Source: Candidatus Latescibacterota bacterium (GTDB lineage: Bacteria; Latescibacterota; UBA2968). Taken from it: a DNA stretch of 64,000 nucleotides. Numbering within the stretch: the first letter of the stretch is position 1; each line of letters begins with the position of its first letter. This document shows, one piece after another, positions 639 to 18,159 of the stretch. Location of the stretch: NCBI GenBank assembly GCA_965204745.1, contig OZ242010.1, positions 4,736,001-4,800,000 of the forward strand, given 5' to 3'. Below the pieces are notes generated by a model. The model saw only the letters and a list, made by a program, of their open reading frames with translations. It was not told the DNA's origin and ran no database searches. The position numbers were made by a program, and so were the translations under genes.

Positions 639-2045
639 TTAAGACAACGCCTCAATCCCATTCCAAAACGCCTTGCCCCACTCGCTTTGTGCATCATCCC
701 AATCGTCGCGCCACTGAAACAGGGTAGCGCGCAACGCATTGAGCCTGCCCGCGTGTGCCTCGTCATCCGCCAGATTGTGCAATTCCAGCGGATCGGTTTC
801 CAAATCGAACAACTGAGTCGTGCGCCGCCCATTCACCGCGTATTCAATCAGCTTAAACCGCTCGTCTTTCACCATGCGCTGAAAGCCGCGATAAGCCGCG
901 AACAGGGTCTCGCGCACTTGCACATCGCCATCCTCCATCGCCGAAACCAAACTCGCCCCCTCCACAGAACTCGGCGTATCGACCCCGATCAACGCGCACA
1001 GGGTTGGGAAAATATCGAGCAAATACACATACGCGGATCGCCGCTCGCCCGCAGGCACGCCTGGCCCGGCAAAAATCAGGGGCACGCGCACGCTGTGCTC
1101 GTACATATTCTGCTTGCCCAAAAGCCCGTGTTGCCCCACGGCCAACCCATTATCCCCGGCAAAAACGACGATGGTATTGTCCGCCTTTTTAGATGCGGTC
1201 AGCGCGTCCAACACCCGCCCCATCTGCGCGTCCAAATGCGTAATCATCGCGTAGTACTCGGCAATGTGCCGGCGCACCTTATCGGGATCCCGAGGAAACT
1301 CCTCGAGCACCTCATCGCGCACCTTCAAATCGCCATTGTCAAACGGGTGCCCGCCCATGAAATTCTCCGGAAGCGGCACATCCTCCGGATCGTACATATC
1401 CAAATACGCCTGCGGCATCGTGCGCGGATCGTGCGGGGCCATAAACGAAAGGTACATAAAAAACGGATCATCGGAATCGCACTGCGTCAACCAATCAATC
1501 GCGCCCTCGGCAAACAACTCGCTGGAATGCTTGCCCGCCCTGACGTGGTCCCCCTTCCGAATCTTCAACGCATTTGACCGAAACGCATCTGGGCACTGCG
1601 GCAACACCGAATCGTAGTTGCCGGTCGGATCGTAATCAAACGCGGGCACATTCCAATGATCGTCCATCCCCCCGAAAAAGATCTCTGCCCCATCCGAAAA
1701 GCTGCGGGCAAAAGAAGCCGGGCCATTATGCCATTTTCCCGTGCCCCATGTGCGATAGCCATGGGCCTGCAAATGCTCGCCTAACATCACATGATCTGCG
1801 GGAATGCCCTGCCCCGCGCCCTCGAGGTGAAACAGCGTGCGCCCGGTGTGCAACATCGCCCGGCTCGGCATGCAAATTGCGCCCGACGTCCCCCCGGGAA
1901 TATGCGCGTGCGTGAACGTCGTGCCCTCTGCCACCAGCCGATCCAAAGTCGGCGTTTGCACATCCGCATTGCCCAGCGCGTGAATTGTGTCAAACCGCTG
2001 ATCATCCGTAAAAAAGAACACGATATTCGGCTTCTGATTGCCCAT
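639..2045 (-). CDS. Sulfatase-like hydrolase (choline-sulfatase-like)
   Basis: KPNIVFFFTDDQR, CMPSR (CxPxR), GKWH, GDNG and GKQNMYE motifs. Start taken at MGNQKP after a GGAGG RBS. Confidence 0.9.
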   Translation of the reverse strand: MGNQKPNIVFFFTDDQRFDTIHALGNADVQTPTLDRLVAEGTTFTHAHIPGGTSGAICMPSRAMLHTGRTLFHLEGAGQGIPADHVMLGEHLQAHGYRTWGTGKWHNGPASFARSFSDGAEIFFGGMDDHWNVPAFDYDPTGNYDSVLPQCPDAFRSNALKIRKGDHVRAGKHSSELFAEGAIDWLTQCDSDDPFFMYLSFMAPHDPRTMPQAYLDMYDPEDVPLPENFMGGHPFDNGDLKVRDEVLEEFPRDPDKVRRHIAEYYAMITHLDAQMGRVLDALTASKKADNTIVVFAGDNGLAVGQHGLLGKQNMYEHSVRVPLIFAGPGVPAGERRSAYVYLLDIFPTLCALIGVDTPSSVEGASLVSAMEDGDVQVRETLFAAYRGFQRMVKDERFKLIEYAVNGRRTTQLFDLETDPLELHNLADDEAHAGRLNALRATLFQWRDDWDDAQSEWGKAFWNGIEALS

Positions 2046-2345
2046 ATTATTCCCTCCTGAAAAGTGGTCAATATCTTCGGGCGAGCACGCTACACCCCAA
2101 AAGGTGAGAAGGCAGAGGCAAGACGTGAGAACCACCCCTCTCCCCTCTTGCGTCTTCCCTCTTGCGTCTTCCCTCTTACGTCTCCCCTCTTACGTCTCCC
2201 CTCACCTGAGCAATAAACCTTTCTCCCGCCGCAAAGTCAAGTTCCCAAACAACCACCTCAAAACGCGCTTCTCTTTCTGCTTTCGCTCTGCCGTGTCCCA
2301 TGATATATTGCAACCGACAACCGTCCACTTTTTCGGGGCACCCCC

Positions 2346-4873: not shown

Positions 4874-5001
4874 AACAAAAAAGCCGTTCGCAATGGTCAG
4901 CCCTCGCCCGCTCCCCCAAAGACGAGAAACCCATCGTTGGCCCTCGTGCCCGGCCGAATGTTTTGTCGATGGGCGTTTTGTCGTGTATAAAACAAAAAGC
5001 C
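4874..5001. repeat. 128-bp direct repeat, copy 1
   Basis: Matches 9947..10074 with 8 mismatches by manual alignment. Internal stem AAACCCATCG...CGATGGGCGTTT. Confidence 0.9.
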
Positions 5002-5024
5002 GCTCGCAACAACGAGCGGCTTTT
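4995..5024. terminator. Bidirectional-type intrinsic terminator at the end of the four-gene operon
   Basis: AAAAGCCGCTCG-CAACAA-CGAGCGGCTTTT, 21 nt downstream of the PLD gene stop. Confidence 0.8.
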
Positions 5025-5045: not shown

Positions 5046-5900
5046 TTAGGAATTTCCGGATAGCGTCTCAGGTGCGAGAAATGCGAGCCAATTCTGAACC
5101 GTTTCCATATCTCTTCTCGCCTCGGTGGCACTGAGTTTATAGGTCTCGGCAAGCGAGCGGGATGCAATGAGAACTTCCATGTTGTGTAGTTGTATCACGG
5201 TGTTGGTAAAAGGGGCGGCGAGCAGACAAGCCGAAGCCCACATTCGGATCTGCTCATCGGTCAATCCTGGAGGGATTAGGAGGGCTTGGATATCGCGTCG
5301 CGCCGCTCGTTGCTCATCAAATGAAGCTATCTCGTCTTCTCTGCCTCGATAAGAGCGTTCAAAATTCCGAAAATCACGAGTCGCTGGTCGCCAAGTGTCA
5401 AATCGGGGTTGACCACCAGTAATCACGCTACTGCTTTGATCACTGATCTTGGTTATGGCTTCCCAACGCACGAATTCATCATCGCTTATTTCCCTCGCGC
5501 CTTCCAGCAGGTGCTGTTGAAAGGCATCTACATTGAAGTCGTCGCCAGGGCCACATAAAATCTCCAGATTAGATTGAAGTGACCAACCCAATGCCGAAGC
5601 GGTCAGGTTCGCAGAGCCAATGAGAACCACATCATCGATTCGATAGTATTTGGCGTGCAGAGACGGATGGAGCCTAAACGAACCGCCACGCTCGGTAACA
5701 ATAGTGCGGCATTCGGTATCCGACACACCTAAAGCGAGATCGTGTGGATTCCACCTCGTGATACAGATGAGAGATGTTGTTGAACTAACATCAACCAGAA
5801 TTTTAGTAAGCGCATCAGCCTTGATGTACGGCGCCGCAATGATGAGTTGCTGAGCATCTGAACAAAGGCTACGCAACAGATCTCCTGGCCTGTGATACAT
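5046..5900 (-). CDS. Phospholipase D-like (single HKD) nuclease domain protein
   Basis: LHAKYYRIDDVVLIGSANLT...SNLE is the PLD-nuclease signature. Confidence 0.85.
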   Translation of the reverse strand: MYHRPGDLLRSLCSDAQQLIIAAPYIKADALTKILVDVSSTTSLICITRWNPHDLALGVSDTECRTIVTERGGSFRLHPSLHAKYYRIDDVVLIGSANLTASALGWSLQSNLEILCGPGDDFNVDAFQQHLLEGAREISDDEFVRWEAITKISDQSSSVITGGQPRFDTWRPATRDFRNFERSYRGREDEIASFDEQRAARRDIQALLIPPGLTDEQIRMWASACLLAAPFTNTVIQLHNMEVLIASRSLAETYKLSATEARRDMETVQNWLAFLAPETLSGNS

Positions 5901-5902
5901 GG

Positions 5903-7762
5903 CTATCCGTCTCTCTCTCGCAACTGGCTGATGACCTTATCTACTTGGCGTCCCCAATTTATAGCAATGTCCTGAATACGTGTGCGCTCTTCCCTGGATT
6001 CGGTCTGGTCTTCCATCCGTGCCCAAGACGACAACAATAATCTGATGGCGACAATGGCCTGGAATGCAGGATCGTTCTCGTCGCCATTCTCGTCAAGATG
6101 TCCTTCAACATGCTTGAGCAAGTCGTAGATCGGGTGGTCAGTATTGAGATTGATGTGCAAGACGCCATGGCTAGAGCGCACATTAAATATTTGGTGTCCA
6201 TCCAGTTGGGCAGGATTGAATTGGTATGAAAGTCCCTCTTGCACCAACATCTTTGCGAGTTGTTGCGCCGCTTGATCGGGTTGACCAGATGCGATGAACT
6301 GTTTCGTAAGTCCAGCCTCCCGATCTTCAGATGAAATCAGATCGCGGTCAATATCAGTTTTGGTCCGCGGCTCTTTACCGGCCGCTATAGCATCTCGGTC
6401 TGCGTCGGTGGCAGTCTGCACGGCCTTGTTTTCAGGGCTTCTTCTATCGCCTGCTGTTTTCTCTGGGTCGTCCCGTCTCTGATCAAACATCTGCTTTATT
6501 TGACTCATCATGGCGCGCGTCTGATCACGGATATCTCCTACTATGGTATAGATGATGTCGTCGTCGATTCCCATCTCGTCTAGTATTACCTGATTGGAGC
6601 GGTCATCACGGGCGAGCGTTTTCGCAGCATGTGTGAAATTTGCAGCCATCTGCTTGTTGTGATCTACGCCAAACAACTCATCGCAACTGCGAGGGAAATG
6701 CACCTCACAACCCCACCAGCGATTCTGCGGGTTCTCAGCACTCCCACCTTCTCTAAGAAAGGCGTCTTCGAGCACAATCTCCCTGTCCTCTCGGACGACT
6801 GATACGCCGATGTTGTGTCTGGCGTGAGTACCATGCTTTTCAGCACCGGGATTCTGCGTAACTCTGTTCGTCTGCAAGGCTTCAGGCTTAACGATTGAAT
6901 ACTTCACTTCAATAGTGACCTCTTTGCCCTCCACGGTGGGCGTATATTCTTTTTTAGTCCATTCTCTAAACATCGGTTCGTTACTCCAAGGCCCAGGAGT
7001 AGAGGAAGGATTCATCAGGTAGAGAGGATCGTTTGCGACAATACAATCCTCGCCCTTAATTTCGGTAGGGCGGTTATTAAGAAAAAAGCCGACTCGTATT
7101 TTTGTCATCTCCGCATCAATCCAGTGCCGATGGATCCGACCGACCTCTCGGGCTGTGTGTCTGAGGATCGTGTTGCCGGTTCTCCACTGAATCTTGTCCA
7201 GTTTGGTCCAAACGACAAGCGTACCCGAGCGACGTTCATATATTTTGTCGCTACCGGCCTCCCTCCAGACCTCGGGTATAGGTGTCTCTTGATCGGGAAA
7301 AGGAACCTCATGGTCCCCTTTCTCGATGTCGTCAGAGTCTATGCTGGAGTGCCAGGCCGAATCTATGCCTTCTTGCCATGTCCATACATCCACTCGCTTG
7401 CATTGAGACATTGATGAAGTGGGAAGGCCCATGCCATATTTGCCGATCCCCCTATCCGAATTATGACGGGTTCCCCCGCCAAATTTGAGGGCATCAAGGA
7501 GGGTCTTTACGTCCATCCCATCGCCGTTGTCAAGTACCGCCACTTCGGAAACTCGTCGCCGAGTCTGTGCCCCTACTCTCTGAGGCTCTTCCATGCAGAG
7601 GAGGTCAATCTGTCCAGCATTCGCCTCTATCGAGTTGTCGATGAGTTCGGCAATGGCATACGCGGTGTTGTGATACCTGCTGTCCCGCAGGGCACGGATG
7701 GTAAAATGACCGGGGAATAGGCTACGGTCTGCATCTTTTAGTGCGGCGAGTTGGTCGTCCAT
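5903..7762 (-). CDS. MORC/GHKL (HATPase_c_3-like) ATPase
   Basis: AIAELIDNSIEA, DNGDGM, GKYGMGL and SGTLVVW GHKL motifs. GGAGGA RBS precedes MDDQL. Confidence 0.88.
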   Translation of the reverse strand: MDDQLAALKDADRSLFPGHFTIRALRDSRYHNTAYAIAELIDNSIEANAGQIDLLCMEEPQRVGAQTRRRVSEVAVLDNGDGMDVKTLLDALKFGGGTRHNSDRGIGKYGMGLPTSSMSQCKRVDVWTWQEGIDSAWHSSIDSDDIEKGDHEVPFPDQETPIPEVWREAGSDKIYERRSGTLVVWTKLDKIQWRTGNTILRHTAREVGRIHRHWIDAEMTKIRVGFFLNNRPTEIKGEDCIVANDPLYLMNPSSTPGPWSNEPMFREWTKKEYTPTVEGKEVTIEVKYSIVKPEALQTNRVTQNPGAEKHGTHARHNIGVSVVREDREIVLEDAFLREGGSAENPQNRWWGCEVHFPRSCDELFGVDHNKQMAANFTHAAKTLARDDRSNQVILDEMGIDDDIIYTIVGDIRDQTRAMMSQIKQMFDQRRDDPEKTAGDRRSPENKAVQTATDADRDAIAAGKEPRTKTDIDRDLISSEDREAGLTKQFIASGQPDQAAQQLAKMLVQEGLSYQFNPAQLDGHQIFNVRSSHGVLHINLNTDHPIYDLLKHVEGHLDENGDENDPAFQAIVAIRLLLSSWARMEDQTESREERTRIQDIAINWGRQVDKVISQLRERDG

Positions 7763-9009
7763 AGATCCTCCCAATTTGTGAATGCGTCAGCCACGGACCC
7801 GAATCCCGGAAGATTCGTGTCGGCAACGGTGAGTATCTCGGCTTTTGAGTTTCCGCCAGATCTAGGGCCGCGCATTGCTCGGCCCGCCATCTGCGAATAG
7901 AGCACCAGCGAAGTGGTGGGGCGAGCGATAATGACGCAACGAGTACGGGGCGCATCAAAACCGGCGGTGAGCACGCCATAATTGAATATTACCTTATGCT
8001 CTCTGCTGTCGCTTCTAAAAGCATCGATGATAGCCTGGCGATCTTCGCTAGATGTACTGGCTGTCACCACATCAGTTTCAATCCCTTTGTCTCGAAGGCG
8101 TTTATTGCATTCTAAGGCACTCTCTACCGACGGACAAAACACTATGGTGCGAGGGTGGCGTGCAACAGCATGCTCTGCGAGTTCGACGATCTTGCGCGTG
8201 CGCTGTTGGTCGCGGCCCAATTCATCCAGATCATCCGTGCTGTAATCCATACCGGGTTGAGGATCGGTGATGGCCGTCTCTGACTCAAAGCTGATTGGCA
8301 CAAAGCGCGGATCGGCCAGATACCGGTTTTGGATGAGATAGGTGACGGGGTTGCCGTGTCCGCGTGGATCTATCGAAACTTTGTTGTGATTGAACATGCT
8401 GGCAAGTCGATAGTCCGCATCTGTAAGACTCGAGGTACGTCCCGGCGTGGCCGTAAGCCCGAGAAGTGGCGGCCTAACACTACATAACTGCTCGGTTATG
8501 AAGGAATAGGTTTTTGCAACTGCCTGATGAGCCTCGTCGAAAATAACGGCTACGGCACAGTTCGCAAGGTGTGCAAGAAGGGTATTGTCTTGGAACGCAA
8601 CAGAGCGCAACTTGGCAAGCCCTGTCACCAAGAACCCTGAACGGAGACGCCGTAGATCAAGCGACCGATTGCCCCAGTATCGATGAACGCAGATATCTCT
8701 AAACCCAAGATGAGTCCACGCTTCGGAAAGTGTGTCTGCTGCTTGTTCGCAAAGTTCCTCTGTGGAAGCCAGCCAAATAACAAGGGCGTCCTCAATGTCC
8801 TTGTCGTTTAAGAGACGGCAGGCAGCGTGGGCCGCGATTCTGGTCTTTCCGGCACCGGTAGGTAGATGAGCGACGACTCGACGCTCATGAGATGATAGCG
8901 CACGCAAGAGGTCGGTCAGCACCTGCCGTTGGTATGGATGCAACGGATACTTAGGACGGACCGTTGCCGCGTGTGTCTCAAACACCACAGAGTCCCTCGC
9001 ATTCCTCAT
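7738..9009 (-). CDS. DEAD/DEAH-box SF2 helicase (ResIII-like)
   Basis: LHPYQ, LPTGAGKT, DEAH, GLTATP, GFDAP and QMAGRAMR. Start uncertain (ATG 9009 or a nearby GTG). Confidence 0.9.
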   Translation of the reverse strand: MRNARDSVVFETHAATVRPKYPLHPYQRQVLTDLLRALSSHERRVVAHLPTGAGKTRIAAHAACRLLNDKDIEDALVIWLASTEELCEQAADTLSEAWTHLGFRDICVHRYWGNRSLDLRRLRSGFLVTGLAKLRSVAFQDNTLLAHLANCAVAVIFDEAHQAVAKTYSFITEQLCSVRPPLLGLTATPGRTSSLTDADYRLASMFNHNKVSIDPRGHGNPVTYLIQNRYLADPRFVPISFESETAITDPQPGMDYSTDDLDELGRDQQRTRKIVELAEHAVARHPRTIVFCPSVESALECNKRLRDKGIETDVVTASTSSEDRQAIIDAFRSDSREHKVIFNYGVLTAGFDAPRTRCVIIARPTTSLVLYSQMAGRAMRGPRSGGNSKAEILTVADTNLPGFGSVADAFTNWEDLWTTNSPH

Positions 9010-9847
9010 TGAAAGGATTGATCTCGCTCGACTCTTGTGTTTCTCGTTCTGCGATGACACTGGCGAGAGGGCGACGTGCGGCATGCAAATACGGCCGCCC
9101 GGTCAACAATTTCCGCACTGGATTTTTCTTACTGTGGCGAAGCCATTGATCAAAATGCACAGCTTCCTCATAGCTGTCTGGTTCAGACTGCTTCAGTTCC
9201 AGCCAATGTTCGTCTGACCGATAAGGACAGATGACGCAAGCCGACCGAGGCAGGTAGCGACCTGGGTATTCAGCGTCAAACCACGCCACGCAATCTCCGC
9301 GCGTCATACCAATATCCACCAGAGGCCAGCGGTGTTCGACCCATCGTTCTCGGCTCGGCTTCATGCGGCCCACTTCGTCCAGCGAAATTCCAAGCCACAT
9401 CTCGGCGTGGGTATCTTTTGGAAATGGCCGTCCACGTTGCCCACCCGCGAGTTCTCTGATCCGTCGATAAATGGGTCTGATTTTGTAGTGGTTGGTACAT
9501 TGCCTCCGCAACATTCCCTTTTTTCCGTCCTCATTGACCGTGAACAATGGAACATCGACAAAGCTGTGACCCGACGCCGTGAGGCCCTTTCTGAGATTGG
9601 TTTTCAGATTACCTGCGGACACGCGAATCAATGGATATTGGAGTTGCTCTTCAAGCCAGTCCAGATGTCGATACACATACTCCGGCTCCCATCCAGTGTC
9701 GGCAAAGACAGCGGCGTCAGGCGTGGGATAACCCGCCTCAACCAAGCGCGGATCGGACCTCGACAGAAGAAGTGCCAGAACTGAACTCTGCACGCCAGCC
9801 CCTAAACTCAGGGCACGATAGGTTACGGTGCTTGTCTTCTCGACCAT
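8978..9847 (-). CDS. PAPS-reductase-like / adenine nucleotide alpha-hydrolase (AANH) fold protein with Cys clusters
   Basis: PP-loop-like SLGAGVQSS, FADTG, RQCT..YKI.PI, WLGISLDE..R, SACVICPY and C-terminal ECEGLCGV. Confidence 0.75.
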   Translation of the reverse strand: MVEKTSTVTYRALSLGAGVQSSVLALLLSRSDPRLVEAGYPTPDAAVFADTGWEPEYVYRHLDWLEEQLQYPLIRVSAGNLKTNLRKGLTASGHSFVDVPLFTVNEDGKKGMLRRQCTNHYKIRPIYRRIRELAGGQRGRPFPKDTHAEMWLGISLDEVGRMKPSRERWVEHRWPLVDIGMTRGDCVAWFDAEYPGRYLPRSACVICPYRSDEHWLELKQSEPDSYEEAVHFDQWLRHSKKNPVRKLLTGRPYLHAARRPLASVIAERETQESSEINPFNEECEGLCGV

Positions 9848-9907
9848 TTCGGAAGCCCCCTTGTTCCGTTGTGTAACTTATGTTTAAGACAGATAAACGA
9901 TAGACGG

Positions 9908-9936
9908 ATTATAGTCAGTAGTGGTAGCGAGGTCAA
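9908..9936 (-). promoter_or_regulatory. Sigma70 promoter of the four-gene operon
   Basis: Minus strand TTGACC-17 bp-TATAAT, about 60 nt upstream of ATG 9847. Confidence 0.8.
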
Positions 9937-9946
9937 GGGAGATGTG

Positions 9947-10074
9947 AACAAAAAAGCCGCTCGCAATGGTCAGCCCTCGCCCACTCCCCCAAAGGCGAGA
10001 AACCCATCGTTGGCCCCCGTGCCCGCCCGAATGTTTTGTCGATGGGCGTTTTGTCGCGTGCAAAACAAAAAGCC
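9947..10074. repeat. 128-bp direct repeat, copy 2
   Basis: About 94% identical to 4874..5001. Confidence 0.9.
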
Positions 10075-10104
10075 CCCTGGATCGGAGGATCCAGGGGGCT
10101 TTTT
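10067..10104. terminator. Intrinsic terminator downstream of the HsdR_N gene
   Basis: AAAAAGCCCCCTGGATC-GGAG-GATCCAGGGGGCTTTTT. Confidence 0.85.
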
Positions 10105-10229
10105 GCGTGGGTTGAGCGAGTTTTAATCATCGGGATCACTTTCAATTTCCCCCTTGGCGACCCCCTCGGCCACCATCTTGATACGGTGGAGATCGGTTTG
10201 CGTGGGCGCGCTCACCTTTTTGTCGAGCG

Positions 10230-11356
10230 TCAACTTTCCTCTGAAGCCACCTCATCATAGACCTGGCAGACGGATTTCAGTTGGCCGGCGTATTGGTATA
10301 TATCATTCACAGAATCGATGGGCACTCGGAGCTCTTCCCTGTCCGTACCTTCGAAGGTAAAAGTCTCCAAGTATTTCTGGGATCTGTTGAAGTGCAGTCT
10401 GCTGTTGAAAGTCTGGGCTTTCTGCCGTTGTCGTCCAAGAGGATACCGCAATAACTGATGCGGTCGCGCATCGTTACGCGCGAAAGGTTGACCGTGCCGT
10501 AAAGGATGGATTTCACGGCAAAAAATGCCTCCCACTCTTCTTCGGTTGTAACGATCAAATCATCACCTTCTCTATCTTCATCGTCTTGGGCCACGTCCAA
10601 ATCTGGTTGCTCCGAGTCCGGTGCAGAGACAGGGGCAACTTCGCCTCCGAGTGCTGATTTTAGTCGCTCATTGAGGATATCATTTACAAATTGATGGAAG
10701 GCCCGCTTAGCGACAGGTGCAAACTGTTCAATCACGGTTTGGGTTTTGGGTCGAGAATAAACATTGGTGATACAGAAGCGCACAAAATCCTCTGTGGGAG
10801 ACTCGTATTCCGCAGCCAAGATGTGTTTGATTTCCCGCATATATTTGAGCTCGCTTGCCGTGCTCAAGATGCTACCAACATCGAAATTGGCTTTGGTAAA
10901 TTTTTTCAGTTGCTCGACAAGAGATTCCCGAATGTCCAGCAGATTCAGCTCGAGAAATGGTTTGTCGTCCATCCGGTTTGCGGCTTCAATATCCGAAAAA
11001 AAGCGATATGCGATACCATTGGTGAGCACGCCGAAGCGAACCTCTTGAATAGCCGAAAAGTAGCGAAAAAGTTGACTGACATGCTCGCCGTCGAGATCAG
11101 CACCCGCAACCTTGCATTCAAACAAAATCGCAGGGGAGCCATCTTTGAAAATGGCGTAATCGACCTTCTCGCCCCTTTTGGTGCCCACGTCAGCGGTATA
11201 TTCGGGCACCACCTCGCGCGGATCAAAAACGTCATACCCCAACAAACGAATGAACGGCATAATGAGCGCGTTTTTGGTCGCTTCTTCAGTCTCCAACACA
11301 TCTTTCAAATCGAGTGCTCGCTCCGCCAGTTCTCGAATTTCATCAATAAAGTCCAT
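10230..11356 (-). pseudogene. HsdR N-terminal-domain restriction endonuclease-like protein, frameshifted near the 3' end
   Basis: TEEATKNALIMPFI..LGYDVF, GEKVDYAI, FECK and LTNG motifs. The family C-terminus (RLHFNRSQKYL...DIYQY) lies in another frame (ORF 10230..10535), with the shift near 10400-10420. Confidence 0.75.
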
Positions 11357-11450
11357 CGTGCCTCCTTTTGGGTTGTGATGGGATTGTATCCGGCAAATCA
11401 CACTGACCGCATCGGCAATCGTATGTATTCGGTCAGGAGCCGGATGCGAT

Positions 11451-11802
11451 TGTGGAAGCCAGCCAGATAACAAGGGCGTCCTCAATGTCCTTGTCGTTTA
11501 AGAGACGGCAGGCAACGTGGGCCGCGATTCTGGTCTTTCCGGCACCGGTAGGTAGATGAGCGACGACTCGACGCTCATGAGATGATAGCGCCTGCAAGAG
11601 GTCGGTCAGCACCTGCCGTTGGTACGGATGCAACGGATACTTAGGACGGACCGTTGCCGCGTGTGTCTCAAACACCACAGAGTCCCTCGCATTCCTCATT
11701 GACCGTGAACAATGGAACATCGACAAAGCTGTGACCCGATGCCGTGAGGCCCTTTCTGAGATTGGTTTTCAGATTACCTGCGGACACGCGAATCAATGGA
11801 TA
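11451..11802 (-). pseudogene. Internally deleted, truncated second copy of the AANH-helicase junction
   Basis: 11451..11702 matches 8761..9012 and 11693..11802 matches 9528..9637. The two parts are fused at the 10-bp microhomology TCCTCATTGA; about 6 substitutions. Confidence 0.9.
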
Positions 11803-12025
11803 ATCGTCTCGCCATCTCGCGTCCAGGTTTGCGCGCCATCGTCGCTGTAATTGAACACCTTGACATGGCATGAAAACGCCCGCGGAGCCAACACGCGCAT
11901 GCCGGCTTCCCAATCCCCATCCGGAAAATTCGCCTTGGGCGGGAGTCAGAGGTGGGCGGTAGGGACTGATGGCTTTTCGCCTTTTGCCTTTCACGTCTTA
12001 CGTCTTACGTCTTACCTCTTACGTC

Positions 12026-13117
12026 TTACCTCTTACGCCCTTCAAAAACCGGCGCGACGTATTCGGGGGCGTATCGCAGACAGCGATAGATGGCGCGGCG
12101 GCCATTTGGATGGTGGTAGGGGTTGGTAAATTCCCAGACGATGTCCTTATCTGGCGTGACTTCAAAGAGGCGGGAGCGACCGCCTTCGCAGATCAGGGTG
12201 TTGCCATTGGGCAGGCGTTGCGCGCCGGAGATGGCCCGGCTGAAGAACGCATCTTTGGGATCGGCCACGTATTCCCAAGCAATGGTTTCGGTGATGGGAT
12301 CGAGTTCGATGACGCGAGAATATCCGCGCAGGGTGCCGTTGTCAAAAATGAGGACATTGCCATTTGCGAGCATGTGGGGCTTGTGTTGCCCGTCGATGAT
12401 GCCCGGCCCCCAGGCCCAAACGATGTCGCCCGTGGCGTAGTCGATGACGCCGATGACGTCGTTGCTGCGGTACGAGAAGAAGATGTTGCCGGGCTTGAAC
12501 CGCGCATCGCGGTGGGTTTCCCAGGTTTGGTTGGCCGGGATGAGTTGGAGCGTGTTGTTGTGCGCCCAGTCAAAGGCGAATTGCCCGGTGGCGCGGTCCA
12601 AGACGTGTTGCCACGCTTCGGGCGACAAACAGGCTTCCAAGTCTTCGAGATGCTCCTCGCCTTTCCATTCCCACACCAAGTCCTTGTCGCGGGTGATTTC
12701 GATCATGTAGGGATGACGCTTGAGTTCAGGCCCCAAGGGCGGGCACATGGTTTCGTTGAGGGTGTGGATGAGCAAGTTGCCGTTGTCGCGCACCTGAAAG
12801 TCGTGGTCCGTGCGACAGCGCACGCGCCAGACCAACGCGCCATCCGGGTCGTATTCAAAAATGCCGACAGTGTTGCACTGGGTGACGCCCGAGCGGTCGT
12901 GCGTGGGCACCAAGAGATGCCCGTTGGGCAACAGCCTGCAATGCGATTGCACCGTGTGTTGCGCGAGATGCCACGTATGGGCAGGCTCTCCGTCCATGTC
13001 GATGAGGTACACCACCGCTTCTTTGCCGACTTCCCAGTTGGGTTCCGCAAAGGTTTCCGAAAACAAGGTGTAACCGCGATAGGCTTTGTCGGGATTGTGC
13101 TGTGTGATAGGTGACAT
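12026..13117 (-). CDS. Aryl-sulfate sulfotransferase (ASST)-like beta-propeller protein
   Basis: DHDF, DWAHNNT, GQH, FDNG, YSRVIE and SGAQRLPNGNTLICEG. Confidence 0.85.
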   Translation of the reverse strand: MSPITQHNPDKAYRGYTLFSETFAEPNWEVGKEAVVYLIDMDGEPAHTWHLAQHTVQSHCRLLPNGHLLVPTHDRSGVTQCNTVGIFEYDPDGALVWRVRCRTDHDFQVRDNGNLLIHTLNETMCPPLGPELKRHPYMIEITRDKDLVWEWKGEEHLEDLEACLSPEAWQHVLDRATGQFAFDWAHNNTLQLIPANQTWETHRDARFKPGNIFFSYRSNDVIGVIDYATGDIVWAWGPGIIDGQHKPHMLANGNVLIFDNGTLRGYSRVIELDPITETIAWEYVADPKDAFFSRAISGAQRLPNGNTLICEGGRSRLFEVTPDKDIVWEFTNPYHHPNGRRAIYRCLRYAPEYVAPVFEGRKR

Positions 13118-13188
13118 TGTGAGGCTCCTGTCAGTGGTCAGTGCCCATCCTCTCCACCCCGCTACCCGTTCAAAGACGAGTAGCGTGT

Positions 13189-13215
13189 GTAGGGGCGACG
13201 CCCCCGTGCGCGCTC
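13189..13215 (+). repeat. GTAG-type REP element (representative copy)
   Basis: GTAGGGGCG..GCCCC.GTGCTCGCCC-like copies at about 13189, 17069, 35961, 38725 and 43838, and inverted at about 62908. Confidence 0.75.
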
Positions 13216-13430
13216 AAAGATACAAGAGGGAAAGGCGAAAGGCAAGAAGGTAGGAACGCGGCCCTTGTGCCCGCCCCAAGTGCATCCATGGCCGCAACGG
13301 GTTTGGCGGTGCGGGGGGTAATCCGCGTCATCCTTAAATCCGCTTAATCCGCGATCCGCTTTTTGAATTTTTTCTCATGATAACGCCCAAAAGTGCATCC
13401 ATGCCGGTGTAAAAACAAGCGTGGTCTGTC

Positions 13431-13459
13431 TTGACAACGCGCCAATCGTTCCGTAGTAT
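13431..13459 (+). promoter_or_regulatory. Sigma70 promoter
   Basis: TTGACA-17 bp-TAGTAT upstream of a small ORF and the HTH gene. Confidence 0.7.
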
Positions 13460-13505
13460 TCCGCATGGTTGCGTTTTTTGGATGTCCTATTTGAAAGGAG
13501 GAAAC

Positions 13506-13571
13506 ATGAAAATTTTCGTCCTCGCACTTTCGGCAAACAGCATACCCGATTCGCCTCCGGTGAGGTGCTGA
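13506..13571 (+). CDS. Putative 21-aa peptide MKIFVLALSANSIPDSPPVRC
   Basis: Strong AAAGGAGG RBS 4 nt before the ATG, directly downstream of the promoter. Confidence 0.35.
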   Translation: MKIFVLALSANSIPDSPPVRC

Positions 13572-13691
13572 CGGCGGTTTGGTCGTTCACAATCTGTCCG
13601 TCATATCGCTCCTTTGGAGCCGCGGGTCTGGTATGTGAGGCACGGTAATTCGCCCACCATATCCATACCCTTGGAGGAGACGAGCGGACAA

Positions 13692-14066
13692 ATGTACAAT
13701 CCTGATTTTTGGGAAGTTCAATTCGATCAATCGGACTTGGAAATGATGCCGGACGATGTCGGCCTGTGGTACGAATCGCCCGAAGACCAACATTCGCGCT
13801 ACGACAGGGAAGACCGGGTCAAACGTCTCATCCCGCAGATCGATACCCTCTTGAATCGATCCCTGACGCAAAAACAATTTGAAGCCGCGGTCTTGTATTT
13901 CAAATACGGCAAAACCCAGCGGGAAATTTCCGAGATTATGGGCATTTCTCGCAGGGTGGTCAGCCAGCACTTGTTCGGCATTACGCGAAACGGAAAATCC
14001 GTGGGCGGGGCAGTGAAAAAACTTCGCAAGCTCTGCCACAAACACGGTATTGTCATCACGAACTAA
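13692..14066 (+). CDS. Sigma70 region-4-like HTH protein
   Basis: LTQKQFEAAVLYFKYGKTQREISEIMGISRRVVSQHL; GGAGGA RBS upstream. Confidence 0.75.
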   Translation: MYNPDFWEVQFDQSDLEMMPDDVGLWYESPEDQHSRYDREDRVKRLIPQIDTLLNRSLTQKQFEAAVLYFKYGKTQREISEIMGISRRVVSQHLFGITRNGKSVGGAVKKLRKLCHKHGIVITN

Positions 14067-14099
14067 AAACCGCCTGGGCAATAAGCTCAGGCGGTTTTT
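14066..14099 (+). terminator. Intrinsic terminator
   Basis: AAAACCGCCTGGGC-AATAA-GCTCAGGCGGTTTTT immediately after the stop. Confidence 0.8.
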
Positions 14100-14234
14100 G
14101 AATGAAAAAACTGCATCCACATTTGTGTTAAGTAGCCGAACCAACGGGTTGGTGCGGTTTGCTGGTATATCGGCACTCACCGCGCAAGACGCCTTCCGGA
14201 AGCGGATTTGTGCACAATCGAAAGGAGGTTCAAT

Positions 14235-14267
14235 ATGTCGCATAGTTACCCGGAGGGAATCGCCTGA
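14235..14267 (+). CDS. Putative 10-aa peptide MSHSYPEGIA
   Basis: AAAGGAGGT RBS at good spacing, followed by a terminator. Confidence 0.25.
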   Translation: MSHSYPEGIA

Positions 14268-14294
14268 TTTTCGGGCTTTAACCCTTCAGCCGTT

Positions 14295-14327
14295 GGGCCG
14301 GAGACAGTGTCTCTGGCCCTTTTTTTG
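14295..14327 (+). terminator. Intrinsic terminator
   Basis: GGGCCGGAGAC-AGT-GTCTCTGGCCC-TTTTTTT. Confidence 0.75.
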
Positions 14328-14357
14328 TGCTCCGGTCTGCGGTTGTTTTTTTTTGGC

Positions 14358-15830
14358 CTACGGATGGCGGTATTTGTCTCCGAATTTCTCTCGCAGTAGC
14401 GCGGCGCCTTCAGCGCGCCCGGTCTTTTCCAAGCGGTCGCAATAATTTTCAAACGCGCCCCAAGTGTGCATGGGGCCGCCCTCTTGCATGACGGTCCACA
14501 GCGGGTCATTGTCATGTGGACGCGGCATGGTCGCCATCATCTGGTCGTGCCAGTTCATCAAGCGGTACACCGCGTCGCGGCACACAGCGGGATTTTCGGT
14601 TGCGACATCGCGCATCTCCCACGGATCGTCTGCCAAGTTAAACAGCATCTCGCGGGGATAGAGGCGATACCCGTCGTGATACGTGCGAATATAGATCCAA
14701 TCGCCAAAGCGAACCGCGCGTTGACACACATGCGCGCACTGGCTTAGGATCAACTCGCTGCGCCCGGCGTCTTTGCCCTCGGCAATCGCGGGGGCATAGC
14801 TCTCGCCATCCCACAACGCTTGCTTCTGCCCGCCCAAGAGATCGGCCAAGGTGGGCGCCAAGTCGATGTTGTAATGCAGTCCGTCATCCACGATCCCGCG
14901 TTGCCCGCCCGGCCATTTGACGATCATCGGAATGTGGCAGGTGGCCTGATCCGCTGTGCCGTGCTCGCCGTAAATGCCGAGTTCGCCCATGTTCTCGCCG
15001 TGATCCGCGCTGATGATGATCGCGGTGTCGTCTAGCACCCCCGCGTCTTCCAACATGCCCACAATCAGGGCGATTTGATCATCCACATACCGAATCGCCG
15101 TGTCGTACCCGTCGATCATGCGCCGCAAATCGCCTATCGCGTCCAACCGCCCGGGATGCCGGGGAAAGCGCGGATTGGGCTGGTCGTGCCACATCATAAT
15201 GTCCTGCGCGGTGTGGGGGCCGACGAGCTTTTTGTGTTCTTCGAGCAACTCGGGCGTCAACCAGTCTGGCAGGGGCGCGTCGGCAAAGGGGTCGCCGTAA
15301 TCCGCAGGCGCACGATAGGGCGTGTGGATGTCCCAGTAATTGAGGTGCAAAAACCAGTTGTCGTCTGCGGCATTGTCCCGCAACCACTTTTCGACCACTG
15401 GGGTCACGTCTTCTGCGGACTCCATGCCGCCCTTGCCCGTGTTGTGAATCTCGTTGAAGCCCGCGTAAAAATGCCACGCCGCATGCCGCTGTCCAAACGG
15501 GCTGATCATCGCGGTTTTCAGCCCCCTGCGTTGCAAGAACCCGGCCAGACCCTCGTTGGCGAGCCGATCCCGAAACCCGCGGTCCGGCCCATTGATGCGC
15601 CGCTCTGCGGCCGTGCCGCCGTGCCCCACCACGCCCGAATGAATGCCGAATTGCCCGGAGTAAAACGCGGTGCGCGATGGCAAGCACGGCGCGTCCGTGG
15701 TATAGACCTGATTGAAGCGAATGCCTTGCGCCGCGATTTTATCTATAGTCGGCGACGTGTTGCGGTGATACCCATAGCAACCCAAGTGCGTGGGGTTCAG
15801 CGCGTCGAGGTCGAGGTACAAAATACGCAT
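14358..15830 (-). CDS. Sulfatase
   Basis: CLPSR, WDIHTPY, YDTAIRYVD and SADHGE. Confidence 0.9.
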   Translation of the reverse strand: MRILYLDLDALNPTHLGCYGYHRNTSPTIDKIAAQGIRFNQVYTTDAPCLPSRTAFYSGQFGIHSGVVGHGGTAAERRINGPDRGFRDRLANEGLAGFLQRRGLKTAMISPFGQRHAAWHFYAGFNEIHNTGKGGMESAEDVTPVVEKWLRDNAADDNWFLHLNYWDIHTPYRAPADYGDPFADAPLPDWLTPELLEEHKKLVGPHTAQDIMMWHDQPNPRFPRHPGRLDAIGDLRRMIDGYDTAIRYVDDQIALIVGMLEDAGVLDDTAIIISADHGENMGELGIYGEHGTADQATCHIPMIVKWPGGQRGIVDDGLHYNIDLAPTLADLLGGQKQALWDGESYAPAIAEGKDAGRSELILSQCAHVCQRAVRFGDWIYIRTYHDGYRLYPREMLFNLADDPWEMRDVATENPAVCRDAVYRLMNWHDQMMATMPRPHDNDPLWTVMQEGGPMHTWGAFENYCDRLEKTGRAEGAALLREKFGDKYRHP

Positions 15831-16018
15831 GATGCGATCCTTTCAGTTTTGGTGTGTGGGACAAGTTATCTCTGAACGCGCTTTTTGGCAAGTCTCCCAC
15901 CCGCCCTTTGGTTCGGGTTATATCGGCTAAGAAACTTGCCTGTGATGGCTGAATAGGGTATCATATTGCCAAAGCGTTGTGTGCGTTTGTGGATCATCTA
16001 TTTTTGGGAGATAGAATT

Positions 16019-16645
16019 ATGAGCGGCGTATTCGTCTATTGGGATAATTCCAATATTTTCAATGAGGCGCAGCGCATTGCTTCAGAACGAGAAGGCACGG
16101 CGGGGGCCCGCTATTTGGTTCGCATCAATTTCGACAAGATGCTGCGCTTGGCACATGCCGACCGGTCACTGGAAAAAGCAGTCGCCGCCGGCTCTGTCCC
16201 GCCGGAAATGCGCCAATTGTGGAATCGGTTGGAAAATCAAGGCGTGGAAGTCCAGCTGTATGATCGGGGTGCTCCAGACCGGGGCGAACAGGAAATCCCC
16301 GACCGCTGGCTACAGTTGCGTATGCTAGAGCACGGTTGGGATTACAACGGCGACCCCGGCATTGTGGCACTGCTGACCGGCGACGGTGCGGGCTATTACG
16401 AGGGCAGAGGGTTTCACAGCACATTGGAGCGCATGCACCGACGGGGTTGGAAGATAGAAGTTTTGTCATGGGAACATTCATGCAACCGAAGAATGCGCCA
16501 ATGGGCAGAGGAGAACGGCGTCTTTGTTCCGCTGGACGATTATTACTGGGCCATAACTTTCAGGGAACCGTCTCGAGAAGGTCACGAGTTTGCACCCGCG
16601 CGCGACGAGATGGAACTGGATCTGACGCAACGACCAATGGTCTAA
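16019..16645 (+). CDS. NYN (LabA/DUF88, PIN-fold) domain protein
   Basis: VYWDNSNI, EQEIPD, LLTGDG and GWKIEVLSW. Promoter TTGCCT-17-TATCAT upstream. Confidence 0.85.
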   Translation: MSGVFVYWDNSNIFNEAQRIASEREGTAGARYLVRINFDKMLRLAHADRSLEKAVAAGSVPPEMRQLWNRLENQGVEVQLYDRGAPDRGEQEIPDRWLQLRMLEHGWDYNGDPGIVALLTGDGAGYYEGRGFHSTLERMHRRGWKIEVLSWEHSCNRRMRQWAEENGVFVPLDDYYWAITFREPSREGHEFAPARDEMELDLTQRPMV

Positions 16646-16695
16646 GCCCCATCTCGCCTAACGCATTGTAGGGCCGTGCCCCCGGCCCTCTTGTT

Positions 16696-17018
16696 TAGGT
16701 TCTGTATCGGGACCTACCCCCCTAACCCCCCTTCCTGTGAGGAAGGGGGGAACTGTGAGCGGTTTTGCGAGGGGATTGATGAGGGATTTCTAATCGCTTT
16801 ATGCCCTCGCGCAACGCCATCAGAGCAACCAGAACTCTACGCCATCAAAGGGACTTTACTCCCCTTTCCTCGTAGGAAAGGGGCCGGGGGATAGGTCCCC
16901 TCGCGCAACGCCATCAGAGCAACCTAAGCCATCAAAGGACCAAACGCATTAACTGAGCAAGCAACACATTTGCTACTCTGTGCGTAACGGTAAAAAAATG
17001 AAATGTCAACACAACCTA
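16696..17018 (+). mobile_element. IS5-like MITE, left arm truncated, carrying hairpin repeats
   Basis: Starts TAGGTTCTGT and ends AAATGTCAACACAACCTA; the interior closely resembles 41358..41655. Confidence 0.75.
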
Positions 17019-17151
17019 GCCAAAAAAGGCACGCTGGGCGACAGCCTGTTCAAAGGCAAGTAGTGTGTGTAGGGGCGGTGCCCCTGTGCTCGCCCGAAGA
17101 TGCAAGAGGGCCGCTCTGGCCCATCAACTCGTCGTACACCAAGGAGGTCTC

Positions 17152-18159
17152 ATGAAAATTCTCGTCACAGGTGCTGCCGGGCAGGTCGGTTGTCGGCTCG
17201 TGCGGCAGTTGCTCGATCAAAACGATGACGTGCGCGGCACCATTCTCACAGGCGATCCCGCACGCAACCGGCTCGACGGACTCGACATCGAGTTGCGCGA
17301 AGGCGACCTGACCGATTTCGACTTTGTCGCGGATGCGGTCAAGGGCGTGGACGCGGTCATTCACACGGCCAACCTCGTCGGCCCGCATTTTGAACTCAAC
17401 AACCAGATCAACCTGCAAGTGACCCGCGCCTGCGAGGCATTTGCGGACCGCCTCGAACGCTACGTCTATACCAGTTCGTCGGGCGTGTTCCCCAACAATG
17501 GCGAAAGCGTCCCGTGCGCGTACCACCCAGTTGACGAGTTGCATCCCAAACGGCCCGACAGCGAATACTCCATGTCCAAGTATTTCGGGGAGATCATGGC
17601 GGAACGCGCTGCGCGGGAAACCGGGTTGCGCTATTCAATCGTGCGGCCCAGCCACGTCTTGTCCGGAACCAAAATCCTCAACCAGTTCAGCGTTGCCCGC
17701 GTGGTCAATACGCTCAAAAAAAGCCAGAGCAGGCCCGGCACGGAACTCCACATGCCCGACGGCACAGAACTCTGGCACGACATCGAAGCCCAAGCCGCGT
17801 CCCCGAATCAACCGTGTAGCATCACGGATCGAGACGGGCACCCGTGGCTGTACCAACCCCAAGACGCCCGCGACATCGCCCATTGCTTGGTCTGTGCCCT
17901 GAAATCGGGTGCGGCACTCGGCGAATCGTTCAATGCCGGCGCGCCCGAACCCTTCCCCTTTCCGGAAGGCGCACGCTTGATCGAAATAAAAAGAGGGGTC
18001 GAACCCCTCGAGGTGCAAGTCCCCCTCCGATACATGTACGATCACGCCATCGGCAAAGCCAAAAGCCTGATCGGCTATGCTCCGCAAGGCGATTTGAACG
18101 CCATGATCGAATCGGCCTTTGCGTGCGAGGAGGGCGAAACGGACTATACGTGGGATTGA
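17152..18159 (+). CDS. NAD-dependent epimerase/dehydratase
   Basis: MKILVTGAAGQVG, YTSS and YSMSK (YxxxK); AGGAGG RBS. Confidence 0.88.
   Translation: MKILVTGAAGQVGCRLVRQLLDQNDDVRGTILTGDPARNRLDGLDIELREGDLTDFDFVADAVKGVDAVIHTANLVGPHFELNNQINLQVTRACEAFADRLERYVYTSSSGVFPNNGESVPCAYHPVDELHPKRPDSEYSMSKYFGEIMAERAARETGLRYSIVRPSHVLSGTKILNQFSVARVVNTLKKSQSRPGTELHMPDGTELWHDIEAQAASPNQPCSITDRDGHPWLYQPQDARDIAHCLVCALKSGAALGESFNAGAPEPFPFPEGARLIEIKRGVEPLEVQVPLRYMYDHAIGKAKSLIGYAPQGDLNAMIESAFACEEGETDYTWD

Follow-up and report, generated by a model that had tools for sequence, protein, structure and literature searches.

The stretch of DNA analysed here (the window, 64,000 nucleotides (nt) in length, positions 4,736,001 to 4,800,000 of contig OZ242010.1 in GenBank assembly GCA_965204745.1 of a Candidatus Latescibacterota bacterium) harbors a cassette of four co-directional open reading frames (ORFs) on the minus strand, designated genes A, B, C and D in the order A-B-C-D, which spans positions 5046-9936 according to the ORF calls on the window. 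The cassette is composed of the following features, listed in the direction of reading.

9908..9936, minus strand: promoter-like site of the sigma-70 type, TTGACC-17-TATAAT, 11 of 12 positions matching

8978..9847, minus strand: gene A, 289 amino acids (aa), 3'-phosphoadenosine-5'-phosphosulfate (PAPS) reductase superfamily, variant PP-loop, six conserved cysteines, of the solitary phage/plasmid type

7738..9009 (long ORF to 9084, 448 aa), minus strand: gene B, superfamily 2 (SF2) helicase, RadD/Rad25-like, likely start at Met26

5903..7762 (ORF listed from TTG 7774, 623 aa), minus strand: gene C, MORC-like GHKL ATPase

5046..5900, minus strand: gene D, 284 aa, nuclease-type phospholipase D (PLD) protein with a single HKD motif

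4995..5024, minus strand: intrinsic-terminator-like hairpin and T-run, 13-base-pair (bp) stem with 7 GC pairs, 22 nt past the stop of D

The start of gene B is most likely at Met26 (position 9009), since the long frame has stop codons among its initial 22 codons in 5 of 24 related loci, and that of gene C is most likely at the ATG at 7762, since GGAGG precedes that ATG. With these refined starts, genes A and B overlap by 32 nt (107 nt with the long ORF of B) and genes B and C by 25 nt, with a gap of 2 nt between C and D, which bears out the original prediction, made from the DNA letters, of four overlapping or abutting minus-strand genes. The terminator that it had placed at the cassette end (13-bp stem and T-run at 5024..4995) and the promoter-like site that it had placed ahead of the genes were likewise confirmed. 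The latter, at 9936..9908, is the top-scoring promoter-like site of the region; seven such sites were observed in the region against 5.8 +/- 2.7 in shuffled sequences, so the number of sites alone is not significant, and the syntenic relatives L001 and L003 retain both hexamers, which five aligned loci of other lineages do not, and we describe the site as strong and promoter-like, with a putative function. The GC content of the cassette (0.522) is lower than that of the flanks (0.577), as had also been predicted, with a genome value of 0.565, and it falls at the 8.4th percentile among 2739 genome windows of equal size; it is reduced yet not extreme.

Protein A carries the motifs SLGAGVQS, SACVICPY and ECEGLCGV, which the original prediction had singled out as SLGAGVQS, SACxxCPY and ECEGxC, and all of them are conserved across the 25 cassettes compared, as are the cysteines C117, C204, C207, C283 and C287 (each 25/25). 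A full-length profile match was obtained to phrog_424, a phage 'PAPS reductase' family (E 1.5e-43 across residues 10-289), and a weak match to the Pfam PAPS_reduct model (E 7e-4, 20 bits, below the 22.5 cut-off), while the PADLOC SspD model was matched at 4.9e-13 and 47 bits, compared with 310 bits for the true SspD of the host genome on the same model. Alignment of the A family with the host SspD by HHalign gave a probability of 98.8% (E 9e-17), and the RxCT and SxCxxC cysteines as well as the C-terminal cysteine pair are common to A and the host SspD, with SLGAGVQS in A and SGGKDS in SspD at the PP-loop position. By these similarities, A is a distant SspD homologue of the solitary type that occurs in phages and in the leading regions of plasmids. 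Two other assignments were tried and dropped: an assimilatory PAPS or adenosine phosphosulfate (APS) reductase (CysH, a family marked by a CC...CxxC cluster and an ECGxH tail), as HHalign of the A family with the host CysH-type protein gave only 10% probability, the host encoding its own CysH at C1:3874967-3875479; and an APS-reductase-like protein, as judged from the loop and the ECxG tail, both for this poor profile comparison and because SspD likewise ends in a cysteine pair. No match to A was found in a sequence search of the PDB or with the BrxP model of PADLOC, and a PDB search with the A profile returned one weak match, 'PptA' (21fy, E 8e-4).

Protein B contains the Pfam domains ResIII (1.9e-20), DEAD and Helicase_C, its best solved-structure match is RadD (2e-28), and the core residues of its GxGKT, DEAH, TATP and QxxGR motifs are conserved in 25/25 cassettes; the PADLOC PbeA model is matched at 3e-20 in the helicase part only (model positions 241-418 of 672), with 70 bits against 649 bits for the true PbeA of the host. 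Protein C exhibits a HATPase_c_3 domain (5.3e-22, Pfam), in which the nucleotide-binding N-box, G1 and G2 motifs are conserved among the cassettes; its best solved match, human MORC2 (E 1.6e-4), covers the N-terminal 100 residues only, and its match to MzaB (62 bits against a cut-off of 850) covers the N-terminal GHKL part only. Protein D shows a PLDc_2 domain just under the cut-off (8.2e-6), with H82, K84, D89, G95, S96 and N98 each conserved in 23/23 sequences and an uncharacterised C-terminal half; a faint resemblance to DrmC was noted (5e-8; 21 bits, where the cut-off is 133), and a sequence search for solved relatives of D found none. No family-level match was obtained for any of the four cassette proteins among the PADLOC and NCBIfam models, and the comparison with DefenseFinder/PADLOC that had been proposed along with the original prediction, run with PADLOC, gave domain-level hits only and no catalogued system. 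No methylase domain was detected by the Pfam scan in the four cassette proteins or in the product of the neighbouring gene.

Related loci were gathered with A as the query from contigs of one genome per species, which yielded 24 loci with A at 73-92% identity. Genes A, B and C adjoin one another in the same order in 24/24 of them and D is also present in 22, the two loci without D (L002 and L019) ending inside C at a contig end, so that the neighbourhood conservation for which the original prediction had asked was found in all loci, 22 complete and two cut by the contig. The loci come from metagenome-assembled genomes of Latescibacterota, Chloroflexota, Binatota, Acidobacteriota, Gemmatimonadota, Pseudomonadota and Spirochaetota (at least seven phyla), and clustering of the ORFs of the 25 loci showed that the widest other shared family is an aldo/keto reductase, present in 8 loci. 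In a protein search with A, 6895 of the 8000 candidates scored reached E<=1e-3, and the top 120 of them all show 74-100% identity. All four cassette genes are under purifying selection, with ratios of nonsynonymous to synonymous substitution (dN/dS) of 0.05-0.27 for every gene in six pairwise comparisons (0.05-0.15 for A), and the core residues of all catalytic motifs checked are conserved in every cassette aligned. The fraction of invariant positions is 0.44 for A, 0.31 for B, 0.20 for C and 0.20 for D, and the high value of A beside the low values of C and D is the pattern expected of a conserved modifier with a faster-evolving effector. The evidence for the association of the four genes as a cassette is strong.

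Orthologues of the B-C-D trio were also detected beside phosphorothioate (PT) modification genes elsewhere. Full-length C homologues are present on 13 plasmids at 34-39% identity, and 8 of the 13 records were examined (H33, H35, H36, H37 and H38 were left out). All eight plasmid loci have the orthologues of B (helicase) and C (GHKL) side by side, and seven have a D-type PLD gene, the exception being Agrobacterium pAtCFBP7129b; in the four plasmids compared, the trio is 42-44% (B), 35-40% (C) and 28-46% (D) identical to that of the cassette. In six of the eight loci the cluster also encodes an SspD-like PAPS reductase, accompanied by SspC in Hymenobacter and R. litoralis, and by a cysteine desulfurase together with SspB and SspC in Trichormus (where a longer stretch was scanned), Mesorhizobium and Pannonibacter. 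A DndB-like gene was found near the trio in the cyanobacterial and Roseobacter plasmid loci, the Cyanobacterium HL-69 locus having DndB-like and cysteine-desulfurase genes only and no SspD-like gene, and a scan of the Agrobacterium pAtCFBP7129b locus detected no SspD-like, DndB-like or desulfurase gene. In the latter (L031, 4469-12461), the helicase and GHKL genes occur without a PAPS reductase, the third gene is not PLD-like by BLAST, and two large hypothetical proteins followed by a very large protein with an FtsK/SpoIIIE domain are encoded downstream. Among 401 evenly sampled Pseudomonadota genomes, a C homologue was found in five, one of which is an A-type cassette; the other four chromosomal loci all carry SspC and SspD beside the trio, with SspB in three. 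Six of eight plasmid loci and four of four chromosomal loci thus add up to 10 of 12 non-cassette trios that adjoin an SspD-type module, in many cases the whole SspA-B-C-D set. The helicase of the Ssp-linked trios bears an extra N-terminal segment of about 110-130 aa that has no counterpart in B. On the basis of these gene neighbourhoods, A stands in the cassette in the place taken by the SspABCD module beside the orthologous trio.

In a quick IQ-TREE analysis of 37 C proteins, drawn with a midpoint root that serves for drawing only, the 25 A-linked proteins form a single clade (SH-aLRT support 99), within which the branching ignores taxonomy, and Ssp-linked proteins are found to either side of that root, a topology that fits a one-time replacement of SspABCD by A. 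The sequencing runs containing the stretch are mostly labelled as sponge metagenomes, with no RNA runs listed, and the occurrence in at least seven phyla at 73-92% protein identity marks the cassette as a heavily exchanged element among sponge-associated-looking genomes. The cassette itself is a mosaic, with A, B and D closest to the syntenic L001 at a synonymous divergence (dS) of about 0.4, and C (window 5903-7774) at a dS of 0.86 to L001, twice that of A, B and D, and nearest to L007, which suggests recombination within the cassette. In two other loci, the C gene is interrupted by about 2 kb of inserted DNA (L018, 10058-13933) and B and C match in several pieces (L005, 8764-11917), which may represent frameshifts, decay or assembly errors.

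The same genome encodes, about 4.3 Mb away, a complete cluster of SspA-B-C-D, a DndB-like protein, PbeA and PbeC (G000:C1:384000-403500, L037), in which SspA, SspB, SspC and SspD match their PADLOC models at 4e-130, 1e-110, 1e-162 and 4e-93, respectively; behind the cluster come genes for an NsnA-like protein (1e-39) and a PD-T4-6-like kinase (2e-38), and the whole constitutes a second defence island. The original prediction of no methylase and no other dnd or ssp gene therefore stands for the cassette and fails for the genome as a whole. A survey with one SspC model (E<=1e-10) gave matches in just three of the 24 other genomes that carry the cassette and none in the remaining 21, several of which are complete chromosomes and which include the closest syntenic relative G001, so the cassette does not rely on Ssp in trans and, as judged from this distribution, appears self-contained.

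The A family at large comprises 4220 clusters at 50% identity. Full-length solitary A-type genes are present in 51 phage records and 184 plasmid records; those in phages of Pelagibacter, Thermus, Geobacillus, Salisaeta and Synechococcus and in plasmids of Agrobacterium, Rhizobium and Roseobacter show 33-45% identity to A over the full length, and the plasmid genes adjoin ParB, DUF1738 and DUF736 genes. A phage protein with a PAPS-reductase domain is reported to confer anti-Dnd activity (preprint 10.1101/2021.05.05.442762), and another preprint notes PAPS-reductase homologues alongside type IV-B CRISPR-Cas and describes the phage versions as uncharacterised (10.1101/2024.08.14.607894). Only the A clade at >=73% identity is locked to B-C-D. 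The closest relatives outside the cassettes include fusions to DUF6339, which is the PADLOC candidate PDC-M33C, and the A-type domain in this fusion is 45-50% identical to A. One such fusion lies in an operon of genome G017 (L142, G017:C1:2039000-2058900, 6211-17956) that encodes PDC-M33A, PDC-M33B, the PDC-M33C::A-type fusion, an 826-aa helix-turn-helix (HTH) protein, PbeA (1.9e-170) and PbeC, and it is a second case of an A-type enzyme beside a known partner effector of PT, in an uncatalogued M33-Pbe pairing; in G022 (L143), M33C and the A-type sequence are encoded separately. Fusions of a winged HTH (wHTH) domain to an A-type domain also exist (P0222). A metagenome scan with one DUF6339-A fusion found nothing, a scan with an alignment found solitary A-type genes only, and the extra A-type copies in G011 and G014 have no known neighbour with the queries used. 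In the phage-like Mesorhizobium plasmid MesoLjLa5 (L025, 6485-7804), a 440-aa protein annotated as a DNA cytosine methyltransferase is A-type in its C-terminal two thirds, and it adjoins a large DNA methyltransferase gene and primase genes.

The surroundings of the cassette record a local rearrangement, for which the following features were observed.

4874..5001: direct repeat, copy 1, 128 nt, in the native 3' flank of the cassette

9947..10074: direct repeat, copy 2, 128 nt, 94% identical, just upstream of the promoter, part of a genome-specific rearrangement

10307..11356, minus strand: endonuclease gene with an HSDR_N domain (HSDR_N 3e-15; phrog_4225 1.4e-112)

11451..11802, minus strand: decayed second copy of pieces of A and B, 98-99% identity

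Synteny of L001 and L003 with the window extends to either side of the cassette, and the segment 9947-11802 is missing from both and present only in this genome; the flank at 11803-11934 corresponds to the sequence that directly abuts the cassette upstream in L001 and L003. Within the segment, 11451-11702 matches 8761-9012 (98%) and 11693-11802 matches 9528-9637 (99%). The 128-nt repeats were considered as attachment sites or a target duplication and rejected as such, since L001 carries a single copy, downstream of the cassette only, and the second copy lies in the genome-specific stretch together with the pieces of A and B; they record a partial duplication, not an integration site, and 9947-11802 has the appearance of a part of the cassette duplicated in tandem and overwritten afterwards. 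The HSDR_N endonuclease gene has no match in the 24 related loci; it lies next to the cassette but is not conserved with it. The cassette is flanked by two sulfatase genes and by genes for a lactonase and an Atg22-like transporter of the major facilitator superfamily (window 639-2135 and 14358-15830), and these metabolic neighbours indicate that the cassette is a small island and not part of a large defence island; an ORF with an NYN domain is located at 15977-16645.

The cassette was compared with the known systems that share parts of it, and it is uncatalogued. With Ssp it shares the logic of modifier plus effector, the distant homology of A to SspD, and the B-C-D orthologues that stand beside sspB-C-D(-A) in the 10 of 12 loci; it differs in that its proteins match no SspB or SspC model, it has no cysteine desulfurase, its modifier candidate has the variant PP-loop and the far lower SspD score, and its effector is neither SspE nor SspFGH, the latter being unrelated to the trio (PMC8092258). 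According to the same source, 83.9% of sspBCD clusters lack SspE or SspFGH, SspE is stimulated by PT, and SspFGH and DndFGH attack unmarked DNA. Pbe is a restriction partner of PT modification, and in Dnd-PbeABCD, PbeA carries the PLD, ResIII and Helicase_C domains that are those of D and B and works with a DNA-clamping ATPase (PMC6459918), whereas PLD and helicase are separate proteins in the cassette, the ATPase is GHKL/MORC-like and not SMC/ABC-like as PbeC, and C and D match no Pbe model. Operons of MORC/paraMORC ATPases were predicted to be laterally spread restriction-modification (R-M) systems (Iyer, Abhiman and Aravind 2008; PMC2292703), in which the GHKL ATPase occurs with a Rad25-like SF2 helicase and sometimes an HKD nuclease; the cassette agrees with these in its intact GHKL motifs and its adjacent helicase and HKD nuclease, but the DNA methylases of those operons have no counterpart in it, and neither PAPS reductase nor PP-loop nor DndC came up in a term search of PMC2292703. 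The phrog_424 genes of phages and plasmids, whose profile A matches in full, stand alone in anti-restriction-like contexts. In BREX type 4, BrxP, a protein of the PAPS-reductase fold, replaces the methyltransferase as the modifier, but it carries a DUF4007 fusion and has BrxC, PglZ and BrxL as partners, all of them absent from the cassette (PMC12839542). PDC-M33, a candidate system only, resembles the cassette in the fusion of its C component (DUF6339) to an A-type domain and differs by M33A, M33B and M33C, which are absent from the cassette, and no mention of PDC-M33 or DUF6339 was found in the literature. C lies far under the MzaB equivalog cut-off, which separates the cassette from MZA, and only D resembles a component of DISARM, namely DrmC, weakly, with no DrmA or DrmB among the matches listed (for B, the best 25 of 36). 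No paper was found that combines SspBCD or SspABCD with GHKL, HATPase or phospholipase D, and no description of the four-gene cassette or the Ssp-linked trio was found in the accessible literature; the supplementary neighbourhood tables of PMC10853773, PMC12839542 and PMC8092258 may list the four-gene combination.

The reading that we consider most likely, with a chance of about even, is that the cassette represents a self-contained, horizontally mobile, modification-dependent DNA defence cassette of the PT family. The A protein would be an iron-sulfur enzyme of the SspD/DndC class that gives the DNA of its own host a mark of the sulfur type, most likely phosphorothioate in the backbone, with sulfur that might be delivered by a housekeeping cysteine desulfurase via the conserved cysteines of A. 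B, C and D would together form the effector, in which B may act as an SF2 translocase, C as a dimerising MORC-like GHKL clamp and D as an HKD nuclease, and the three would jointly scan DNA and nick or cut that whose marking state differs from self. We infer that A modifies DNA, that PT is the mark and that A works without a dedicated partner, and likewise the trio would restrict unmarked DNA rather than be activated by the mark and would protect against phages. The original prediction of an R-M-like defence system with a non-methyl modifier gains comparative support from the co-conservation of the four genes, the similarity of A to SspD and the trio beside SspD-type genes in the 10 of 12 loci, and its modification, restriction and protection are what we infer from these comparisons.

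Several observations weigh against this reading. None of the 80 metagenomic A-type loci (37-48% identity) has a C or D neighbour, so the A family overall is not tied to the B-C-D effector, and the A-type domain of G017 has the dedicated partners M33A, M33B and M33C, which argues that A-type enzymes are not always autonomous. The SLGAGVQS in place of SGGKDS means that the ATP-pyrophosphatase chemistry of A is not assured, and the identity of A to the trio-associated SspD proteins of other loci is no more than 22-23%. Known PT writers depend on an ATPase and on a partner for DNA recognition or nicking, namely SspB/SspC or DndD/DndE (PMC12707154), and the cassette has no partner of these types unless B, C or D fill those roles. 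The genome is already equipped with an Ssp-Pbe system, and the tree of C was obtained by a quick search and rooted at the midpoint only.

The most probable of the alternatives, though an unlikely one, reverses the logic of the effector: the mark made by A would activate B-C-D, and losing A would switch the system off and not be lethal to the cell. Precedents are found in PbeABCD, which needs PT to act and for which loss of dnd is not toxic (PMC6459918), and in SspE, which PT stimulates (PMC8092258), and PbeA combines PLD and SF2-helicase domains as found in D and B; SspFGH and DndFGH, which are also partners of PT modules, act in the opposite way on unmarked DNA, and the cassette sequences do not distinguish blocking by the mark from activation by it. 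Next in probability, and also rather doubtful, is that A is not a DNA modifier, with another substrate (tRNA, a nucleotide or a protein) or a role as a regulator or sensor of B-C-D. Such a role would accord with the variant PP-loop, with a cassette that has no DNA-recognition partner, with the [4Fe-4S] tRNA thiolases among the weak solved-structure matches of SspD-type proteins, with the PAPS-reductase/CysH-like accessory proteins of unknown role in other defence loci, and with the PAPS-reductase homologues noted beside type IV-B CRISPR-Cas (10.1101/2024.08.14.607894). The position of A exactly where SspABCD sits beside the orthologous trio argues for DNA instead, as do the A-type domain beside PbeA and PbeC, the wHTH-A-type fusions (P0222) and the solitary homologues in phages and plasmid leading regions, where self-marking of DNA is a common theme.

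A function outside defence, as a module of DNA repair or maintenance or as a selfish addiction cassette, is improbable: B is most similar to the repair helicase RadD and R-M-like cassettes can act as addiction modules, but the spread over phyla is patchy and driven by transfer, with a C tree that does not follow taxonomy, the orthologues are linked to Ssp, Pbe-type and DndB-type genes, and the set of helicase, GHKL ATPase and nuclease matches the predicted R-M operons (PMC2292703). Least probable of all is that B-C-D read the PT made by the separate SspABCD cluster of this genome with A as an accessory: the genome does hold SspA-D and orthologous trios elsewhere do partner SspABCD, but 21 of the 24 other genomes with the cassette, G001 among them, gave no match to the SspC model, A is retained in 24/24 loci, and the host Ssp cluster has its own PbeA/PbeC partner.

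PT defence is now understood to depend on a writer of several proteins, DndA-E or SspA-D. What is new here is the occurrence of B-C-D orthologues beside SspD-type genes elsewhere and the apparent replacement of that module by A in the cassette, and a single 289-aa enzyme in the place of the writer offers a direct and cheap test of single-protein PT or related sulfur marking. A broader proposal, which we advance only tentatively, is that the solitary 'PAPS reductases' are single-polypeptide writers of sulfur into the DNA backbone that depend on nothing beyond housekeeping sulfur donors, with the helicase-GHKL-PLD trio as a hitherto unrecognised reader and effector and the cassette, with its single writer gene and three effector genes, as the minimal natural PT R-M system. 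If the reading proposed here is true, it would explain what the 'PAPS reductase' genes so common in phages and plasmids do, and it would provide a new effector partner for the large fraction of sspBCD clusters reported to lack SspE or SspFGH (83.9%, PMC8092258).

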